This document shows positions 1-628 of a stretch of 628 nucleotides of DNA, one piece after another. Below the pieces are notes generated by a model. It had not been told where the DNA came from. It made no database searches and was given only the letters and a program-made list of their open reading frames with translations. How positions within the stretch are numbered: the first letter of the stretch is position 1; every line of letters begins with the position of its first letter. The position numbers and the translations under genes were made by a program. The stretch is from a phage, in sequence record DQ006815.1; one strand, 5' to 3'.

Positions 1-24
1 ATTTAACTGAGTATAAGAGGACAT
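1..24 (+). other. Partial 5' untranslated leader of an ssRNA phage genome (cDNA sense), upstream of the A2 start
   Basis: An in-frame TAA at 4-6 closes the A2 frame upstream, and the first downstream ATG is at 25-27. The stretch gagtataagaggacatatg matches my recollection of the Qbeta 5' leader immediately before A2. The window appears to begin a few tens of nt inside the genome, so the terminal 5' hairpin is not present. Confidence 0.75.
15..21 (+). promoter_or_regulatory. Shine-Dalgarno / ribosome-binding site for A2 (AAGAGGA)
   Basis: Purine-rich AAGAGGA at 15-21 with a GAGG core at 17-20, 4 nt upstream of the ATG at 25-27. The spacing is slightly short but workable for E. coli initiation. 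Confidence 0.7.
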
Positions 25-628
25 ATGCCTAAATTACCACGTGGTCTGCGTTTCGGAGCCGATAATGAAATTCTTAATGATTTTCAAGAGCTCTGGTTTC
101 CAGATCTCTTTATCGAATCTTCCGACACGCATCCGTGGTACACACTGAGAGGTCGTGTGTTGAACGCTCACATGGATGACTACTTACCTAATGTAAGTGG
201 TCGCCAGGTAAGGCGCACTCCACATCGTGTTACTGTTCCGATTGCCTCTTCAGGCCTTCGTCCAGTGACAACCGTTCAGTATGATCCCGCAGCACTATCG
301 TTCTTGTTGAACGCTCGTGTTGATTGGGATTTCGGTAATGGCGACAGTGCGGACCTTGTCATTAAAGACTTTGTGTTCCGCACCTTTGCACCTAAGGATT
401 TCGATTTCTCGAATTCCTTAGCTCCTCGTTATACCCAGGCCTTCTCCGCCTTTAATGCCAAATATGGCGTTATGATCGGTGAAGGGCTCGAGACTATAAA
501 ATATCTCGGGCTTTTACTGCGCAGACTGCGTGAGGGTTACCGTGCTGTTAAGCGCGGCGATTTACGTGCTCTTCGCAGGGTTATCCAGTCTTACCATAAA
601 GGTAAGTGGAAACCGGCTACTGCTGGTA
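25..628 (+). CDS. A2: Maturation (A2) protein of a Qbeta-like ssRNA phage, N-terminal 201 codons; 3'-partial, ORF continues beyond the window
   Basis: ATG at 25-27 follows an in-frame stop at 4-6 and an SD. The frame is open for 201 codons (25-627, plus 1 nt of the next codon) with no stop, whereas the other two + frames are stop-dense (for example frame +2 stops at 8-10, 14-16, 146-148, 161-163, 194-196). Translation: MPKLPRGLRFGADNEILNDFQELWFPDLFIESSDTHPWYTLRGRVLNAHMDDYLPNVSGRQVRRTPHRVTVPIASSGLRPVTTVQYDPAALSFLLNARVDWDFGNGDSADLVIKDFVFRTFAPKDFDFSNSLAPRYTQAFSAFNAKYGVMIGEGLETIKYLGLLLRRLREGYRAVKRGDLRALRRVIQSYHKGKWKPATAG. I recognise the N-terminal sequence as Qbeta A2 from memory; this is not alignment-verified. 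Confidence 0.92.
   Translation, partial: MPKLPRGLRFGADNEILNDFQELWFPDLFIESSDTHPWYTLRGRVLNAHMDDYLPNVSGRQVRRTPHRVTVPIASSGLRPVTTVQYDPAALSFLLNARVDWDFGNGDSADLVIKDFVFRTFAPKDFDFSNSLAPRYTQAFSAFNAKYGVMIGEGLETIKYLGLLLRRLREGYRAVKRGDLRALRRVIQSYHKGKWKPATAG
140..160 (+). other. Predicted RNA stem-loop (ACACAC / GUGUGU 6-bp stem, 9-nt loop)
   Basis: Manual pairing: a140-t160, c141-g159, a142-t158, c143-g157, a144-t156, c145-g155; loop 146-154 (tgagaggtc). An alternative extension pairs g147-c154 and a148-t153 with t146 bulged. Not checked with a folding program. Confidence 0.3.
158..169 (+). repeat. Copy 1 of a 12-nt exact direct repeat TGTTGAACGCTC (encodes ..V-L-N-A..)
   Basis: Exact 12-mer tgttgaacgctc at 158-169, identical to 305-316. 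Both copies sit in the same codon phase, 147 nt (49 codons) apart. Confidence 0.9.
305..316 (+). repeat. Copy 2 of the 12-nt exact direct repeat TGTTGAACGCTC (encodes ..L-L-N-A..)
   Basis: Exact 12-mer tgttgaacgctc at 305-316, identical to 158-169. Flanking bases differ (157 g vs 304 t; 170 a vs 317 g), so the identity is exactly 12 nt. Confidence 0.9.
392..421 (+). other. Predicted RNA stem-loop (12 bp with one U-U mismatch, 4-nt loop UUUC)
   Basis: Manual pairing: 392-404 (ctaaggatttcga) against 409-421 (tcgaattccttag). Pairs are c392-g421, t393-a420, a394-t419, a395-t418, g396-c417, g397-c416, a398-t415, t399/t414 mismatch, t400-a413, t401-a412, c402-g411, g403-c410, a404-t409; loop 405-408. 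Not checked with a folding program. Confidence 0.4.
397..408 (+). repeat. Perfect tandem hexamer repeat GATTTC x2, in codon register (encodes D-F-D-F, aa 125-128)
   Basis: Direct read: gatttc at 397-402 and again at 403-408. It lies inside the predicted hairpin at 392-421. Confidence 0.9.

Follow-up and report, generated by a model that had tools for sequence, protein, structure and literature searches.

A segment of a natural Qbeta strain with the leader end and first 201 codons of the A2 gene, whose ribosome-binding site lies in predicted long-range helices

The leader end and the open A2 frame

The stretch analysed here, called the window throughout, is 628 nt of phage DNA (record DQ006815.1) comprising the end of an untranslated leader followed by about half of a single gene, both on the + strand. 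The leader part (1-24) is the 3'-terminal 24 nt of the 5' untranslated region and aligns to nt 38-61 of the genome of strain BR12 (FJ483842), in which the coding sequence, annotated as maturation protein, starts at nt 62, i.e. at window position 25. Within this leader, AAGAGGA is read from the sequence at 15-21 (+ strand) as the Shine-Dalgarno sequence serving A2, with a GAGG core at 17-20; none of the four core bases (G17, A18, G19, G20) varies among the 16 aligned genomes, MX1 and M11 included. The A2 maturation/lysis gene itself occupies 25-628 with codons 1-201 of 420 and is still open at the window end; its assignment draws on the translation, on PDB structures, on the Pfam family PF03863 and on dN/dS. 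The position of ATG 25 at genome nt 62 is that of A2 as first cistron, about 61 nt from the 5' end and behind a Shine-Dalgarno sequence. An earlier note made from the letters of the window had described it as the 5' leader plus the N-terminal half of a maturation protein. Both are present, but the leader is restricted to the last 24 of its 61 nt, the first 37 nt with the 5'-terminal hairpin lying outside the window.

Frame 1 is stop-free from ATG 25 through base 627, i.e. over 201 codons representing 48% of the gene. The longest stop-free run amounts to 207 codons, against a mean of 85 and a maximum of 198 in 5000 shuffles, none of which reached 200. The other five frames contain 7 to 18 stops each (11 and 18 on the + strand; 14, 7 and 8 on the - strand), and their longest ORFs are of 45 aa (- strand) and 35 aa (+ strand), in agreement with the statement of the earlier note that one frame is fully open and the others are stop-dense. 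The sole stop in frame 1 is a TAA at 4-6, within the untranslated leader. This triplet results from a C to A change at window position 5, unique among the 14 Qbeta sequences, and stands in frame with A2, seven codons upstream of the ATG. It falls among bases predicted to be single-stranded, and no effect on coding is expected.

The product of this frame (residues 1-201) matches the A2 chains of PDB entries 5VLZ, 5VM7 and 7LHD with E = 4e-130 and no indels, and that of 5MNT with E = 1.3e-129. It also belongs to the Phage_mat-A family of Pfam (PF03863), scoring 148.2 bits for a cut-off of 25 (E = 4.4e-43). The gene is under purifying selection, with dN/dS values of 0.10-0.20 in 13 pairwise comparisons with Qbeta sequences and, in the A2 segment, 90 synonymous versus 33 non-synonymous extra codon types. 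The differences from relatives are mostly located at third codon positions, for example 4/3/10 over the three positions, and 7/4/32 in the comparison with the laboratory strain.

Relationship to Qbeta genomes

In a megablast search of 50,697 phage records, 31 records matched the window, every one of them Qbeta or Qubevirus, and the window aligned without gaps over its full length to nt 38-665 of Qbeta genomes. Nineteen Qbeta-type records cover it entirely without gaps, with identities of 91.4-97.1%; in these, the matched stretch extends from nt ~26-40 to nt ~653-665 of the genome and always lies under an A2 maturation protein annotation. The closest record is strain BR12 (97.1%), followed by strain VK (95.9%). 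A more sensitive nucleotide search added MX1 and M11 only, with 75-77% identity over the 3' 40% of the window. The nucleotide and translated searches proposed by the earlier note thus reveal an overwhelming similarity to the maturation proteins and genomes of ssRNA phages, and its reading of the window as a known Qbeta-type maturation/lysis protein is borne out by genomes that are 91-97% identical as well as by the PDB and Pfam matches. Its wording of a "Qbeta-like" phage placed the lineage correctly but can be made more precise, the phage being Qbeta itself, species Qubevirus durum.

In all fetched relatives, namely BR12, other Qbeta genomes, MX1, M11 and an IMG contig, A2 is followed by the coat, A1 read-through and replicase genes in this order, which holds for every relative with 91% identity or more. 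The coat, A1 and replicase genes are therefore presumed to follow 3' of this window too, as judged from relatives that are 97% identical.

Compared with BR12, whose A2 is recorded as assembly/maturation protein (ACT66737), the window occupies the same position (nt 38-665) and shares 196 of 201 residues. However, 18 nucleotides differ, one in the leader and 17 in the coding part, leading to K42R, R53Y, A69V, T76S and T198A, and the two are not the same strain. In IMG/VR and the JGI metagenomes, window-specific 35-49-mers had no match, and conserved 32-54-mers retrieved one contig only, deposited under two names and 96.7% identical to the window. These two names, IMGVR_UViG_3300019216_000421 and Ga0179939_1057709, designate an identical 2890-nt sequence, a partial Qbeta genome that begins about 9 nt from the 5' end. 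The contig has the gene order A2-coat-A1-replicase and, like the window, carries M50, Y53, S58, D110, K114 and V117, but it differs at 21 nucleotides and has neither K42R nor the C to A change in the leader. MX1 and M11 are more distant members of Qubevirus durum, with the same gene, leader layout and long-range closure of the Shine-Dalgarno sequence, the latter preserved by compensatory changes, whereas their nucleotide similarity is confined to the 3' 40% mentioned above and their gene has one extra codon.

Two database labels concerning these genomes deserve mention. In LC710219, the coat ORF at 1335-1736 is mislabelled "lysis protein A2". The title of NC_001890 is Qbeta, but the record bears MX1 locus tags, is about 77% identical to Qbeta strains and calls its A2 (56-1321) a "head maturation protease".

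Infectious cDNA plasmids of Qbeta such as pBRT7Qbeta exist (PMC10248866), and the sequence, given in DNA letters, could in principle come from a DNA molecule, either a Qbeta cDNA clone in a plasmid or an integrated copy, rather than from a replicating RNA phage. This origin has a negligible probability, as searches of 72,556 plasmids, 5,426 complete E. coli genomes and 185,579 GTDB species genomes did not find the window, which differs by about 7% of its nucleotides from the laboratory strains that served for cDNA cloning, finds its nearest sequences in environmental isolates and one metagenome contig, and displays differences with a natural purifying-selection pattern. The earlier note had named embedding in a DNA replicon as a finding that would speak against its reading, and none of these plasmids and genomes provides such a context; the lack of a DNA copy in these three collections is consistent with an RNA genome and is not a proof of it. 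The window almost certainly represents, in cDNA sense, plus-strand genomic RNA from a natural coliphage Qbeta strain (Qubevirus durum), including the leader end, the ribosome-binding site held in predicted long-range helices and the first 201 of the 420 A2 codons.

No identical sequence occurs in the phage records, IMG/VR or the JGI metagenomes, and the window therefore represents a further natural Qbeta variant, about 3% away from the nearest record, with a novelty confined to strain-level substitutions. The system is already known and the window is an ordinary segment of a well-studied RNA phage. The discovery value is small, as the A2 protein of Qbeta is a textbook "protein antibiotic" whose structure has been solved for the free protein, for the virion and for the complex with MurA; what is gained is a negative result, namely that the window can be struck from lists of candidate novel systems.

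Predicted long-range pairing around the A2 start

The RNA corresponding to the window has a minimum free energy (MFE) of -254.7 kcal/mol, compared with -180.1 +/- 7.8 for shuffled sequences (z = -9.6). Three folds were compared, namely the MFE fold of the window, the MFE fold after grafting on the missing 37 nt from BR12, and the RNAalifold consensus of 16 genomes. The identical two long-range helices are predicted in all three. In the first, the leader and Shine-Dalgarno region (7-21) pairs with a downstream complement, UCCUCGUUAUACCCAG, located at 423-438 (+ strand); in the second, the start-codon region CAUAUGCC (22-29) pairs with GGUAAUG at 334-340 (+ strand), as given by the MFE pair list.

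In the 16-genome alignment, 95.9% of the cells are paired over the consensus structure as a whole. The predicted Shine-Dalgarno helix (helix 1) consists of 11 pairs, with 93.8% of the cells paired; MX1/M11 keep three of its pairs via double changes, and the five strains with A15G still form a G-U pair there. The start-codon helix (helix 2) consists of seven pairs with 94.6% of the cells paired, and its changes are one-sided only. Double changes occur at 28 pairs of the consensus, versus 9.3 for shuffles and 5-12 for controls with slid partners, figures to be taken as generous, since the structure and the pair counts come from one and the same alignment and the sequences are mostly close relatives; in the Shine-Dalgarno helix, the double changes come mostly from one lineage (MX1/M11). 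With this reading of the counts, covariation supports the modelled fold closing the ribosome-binding site and the start codon. A search of Rfam at E <= 1 matched no family in the window.

In leviviruses, the ribosome-binding site of the maturation gene is shut by a long-distance interaction and translation takes place on nascent strands, as described in PMC4615214, which cites Beekwilder et al. 1996 for Qbeta. The MS2-type control follows the same principle, the maturation-gene ribosome-binding site being shut by a long-distance helix and translated from nascent strands (PMC4615214), but in MS2 the complement stands upstream in the leader, within a 5' UTR cloverleaf, whereas here it belongs to the A2 coding region, some 400 nt downstream. 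No such pairing of the Shine-Dalgarno sequence with the upstream leader was found in the window, its partner being 423-438. In the predicted fold, the Shine-Dalgarno sequence and the AUG would be locked in long-range helices with sequences located about 400 and about 310 nt downstream, respectively. With the ribosome-binding site and AUG locked by downstream partners, ribosomes should therefore start A2 only on nascent plus strands, prior to synthesis of these partners, a step suggested by the fold together with the levivirus principle. Initiation limited to nascent strands would in turn keep the A2 output low. The work of Beekwilder and colleagues is said to have described RNA-level control in Qbeta with a downstream partner of the ribosome-binding site. 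This control of A2 translation, for the most part contained in the window, is a layer absent from the earlier note. The window offers a clean example, among ssRNA phages, of coding, translational control and RNA folding superimposed on identical bases.

Synonymous variation is unevenly distributed along the gene. It is low in codons 1-40, 71-90 and 151-170 (window 25-144, 235-294 and 475-534), with 3-4 extra types per 20 codons versus up to 24 elsewhere, and these low-variation stretches overlap conserved helices of the consensus fold.

A second, overlapping gene on the + strand, for example an embedded single-gene lysis ORF, is another conceivable reading of such constraint, the candidates being ORFs 41-148 and 317-421. 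Both are uninterrupted in 13-14 of 14 Qbeta sequences, and the A2 codons 1-40 overlapping ORF 41-148 show 7 extra synonymous codon types for about 18 expected (p ~0.003); an internal ATG at window position 65 is also preceded by a GGAG at a distance of 6 nt. However, ORF 41-148 is interrupted by stops in MX1 and M11, and the conserved helices 2-6 fall on the same codons 1-40 and are a sufficient cause of their low synonymous variation. For ORF 317-421, the overlapped codons 98-133 display an above-average synonymous variation (20 types over 36 codons) and the encoded peptide differs freely among strains. Neither candidate peptide includes a stretch of transmembrane grade, their maximum Kyte-Doolittle means over 19 residues being 1.06 and 1.38. 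An overlapping gene is thus highly improbable. The same idea was rejected for all four alternative ORFs, and an embedded sgl ORF that is conserved, under selection and, as is usual for such ORFs, provided with a transmembrane segment was not found in the window. The claim of the earlier note that there is no space for additional genes holds, as the small ORFs in the other five frames are without sign of selection.

Lysis determinant, substitutions and a coding-region hairpin

A2, present as a single copy, is the maturation protein of Qbeta; it attaches the phage to the F-pilus and brings about host lysis through its binding to MurA (PMC12856241), the form bound being the closed, UDP-GlcNAc-loaded enzyme as seen in PDB 5VM7 (PMC10610835). 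The dual role in pilus attachment and MurA inhibition put forward in the earlier note agrees with this literature. Most MurA contacts are attributed to residues 30-120 of the beta-region, and residues 1-180, acting from the cytosol, are given as the shortest lytic fragment (Cui et al. 2017, as cited in PMC12856241). Counted from ATG 25, codons 1-180 correspond to window positions 25-564 and codons 30-120, the range given there, to 112-384, both on the + strand. As both lie inside the window, the whole reported lysis determinant is present, even though the window holds 48% of the gene only. The C-terminal alpha-region, which binds genomic RNA inside the virion (PMC12856241), belongs to the 219 residues C-terminal to this segment and is outside the window. 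From the literature, the exposed beta-region of A2 would bind closed, UDP-GlcNAc-loaded MurA and thereby block the first committed step of peptidoglycan synthesis.

The segment shares 190 of 201 residues (~95%) with laboratory Qbeta A2 (5VLZ for the virion, 5VM7 for the A2-MurA complex, 7LHD and the 5MNT crystal), without indels, and the same 11 differences are found for the solved chain and for Anc(P1). Its fold and its MurA- and pilus-binding surfaces are therefore expected to be the same as those of laboratory Qbeta A2. From the literature and the 190/201 match to the protein of the A2-MurA structure, MurA inhibition and host lysis are presumably retained by this variant; from the literature, it would also bind the F-pilus and genomic RNA as one copy per virion. 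The por/rat mutant positions L28P, D52N and E125G, with L138Q in MurA, gave no match in the literature search, and no claim made here rests on them.

Seven of the 11 differences from the laboratory strain fall within residues 30-120, namely K42R, L50M, R53Y, G58S, N110D, N114K and L117V. This clustering, together with K42R occurring in no other Qbeta sequence examined, could point to a Qbeta-lineage maturation protein with a weaker or altered MurA binding through K42R, R53Y, G58S and others. Such a change is nevertheless very unlikely. The substitutions are all conservative or common to plaque-forming isolates, BR12 and VK having M/I50, S58, D110, K114 and V117; all seven but K42R are present in other natural Qbeta sequences, R53Y being common to the IMG contig. 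Moreover, Y53 is also the state in MX1 and M11, R42 occurs in MX1, residues 1-41 and 59-109 are almost invariant, and R53Y and G58S are accounted for at the RNA level by the maintenance of a hairpin.

The hairpin in question, a 10-bp stem with a CUAAU loop, is located at 178-202 (+ strand) within codons 52-60. It folds identically in 14 of 14 Qbeta sequences, with energies from -10.6 to -15.6 kcal/mol, and is kept despite six variable stem positions, three stem pairs showing compensatory changes (helix 9 of the consensus); it is not conserved in MX1/M11. The codons of R53Y (181-183) and G58S (196-198) stand on opposite arms, facing each other, and co-vary. At 182:198, laboratory Qbeta has G:C, BR12 has G:U and the window has A:U, and at 184:196 the pair changes from C:G to U:A. 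R53Y completes a compensatory change begun by a silent change in the codon of residue 58. This co-variation suggests that selection on RNA structure acts on amino-acid replacements. It is a more doubtful proposal, and on balance an unlikely one, that K42R, and R53Y together with G58S, all in the beta-region that faces MurA and the pilus, might adjust when lysis occurs or how the receptor is used, or else that R53Y and G58S were driven by keeping the hairpin 178-202 intact. If the latter were true, selection on RNA structure would dictate the protein sequence of a lysis/attachment protein.

The K42R codon is found at window positions 148-150, inside the stretch of residues 30-120. It encodes the sole residue of the window that is absent from the other Qbeta sequences compared, and MX1 has R at the aligned position.
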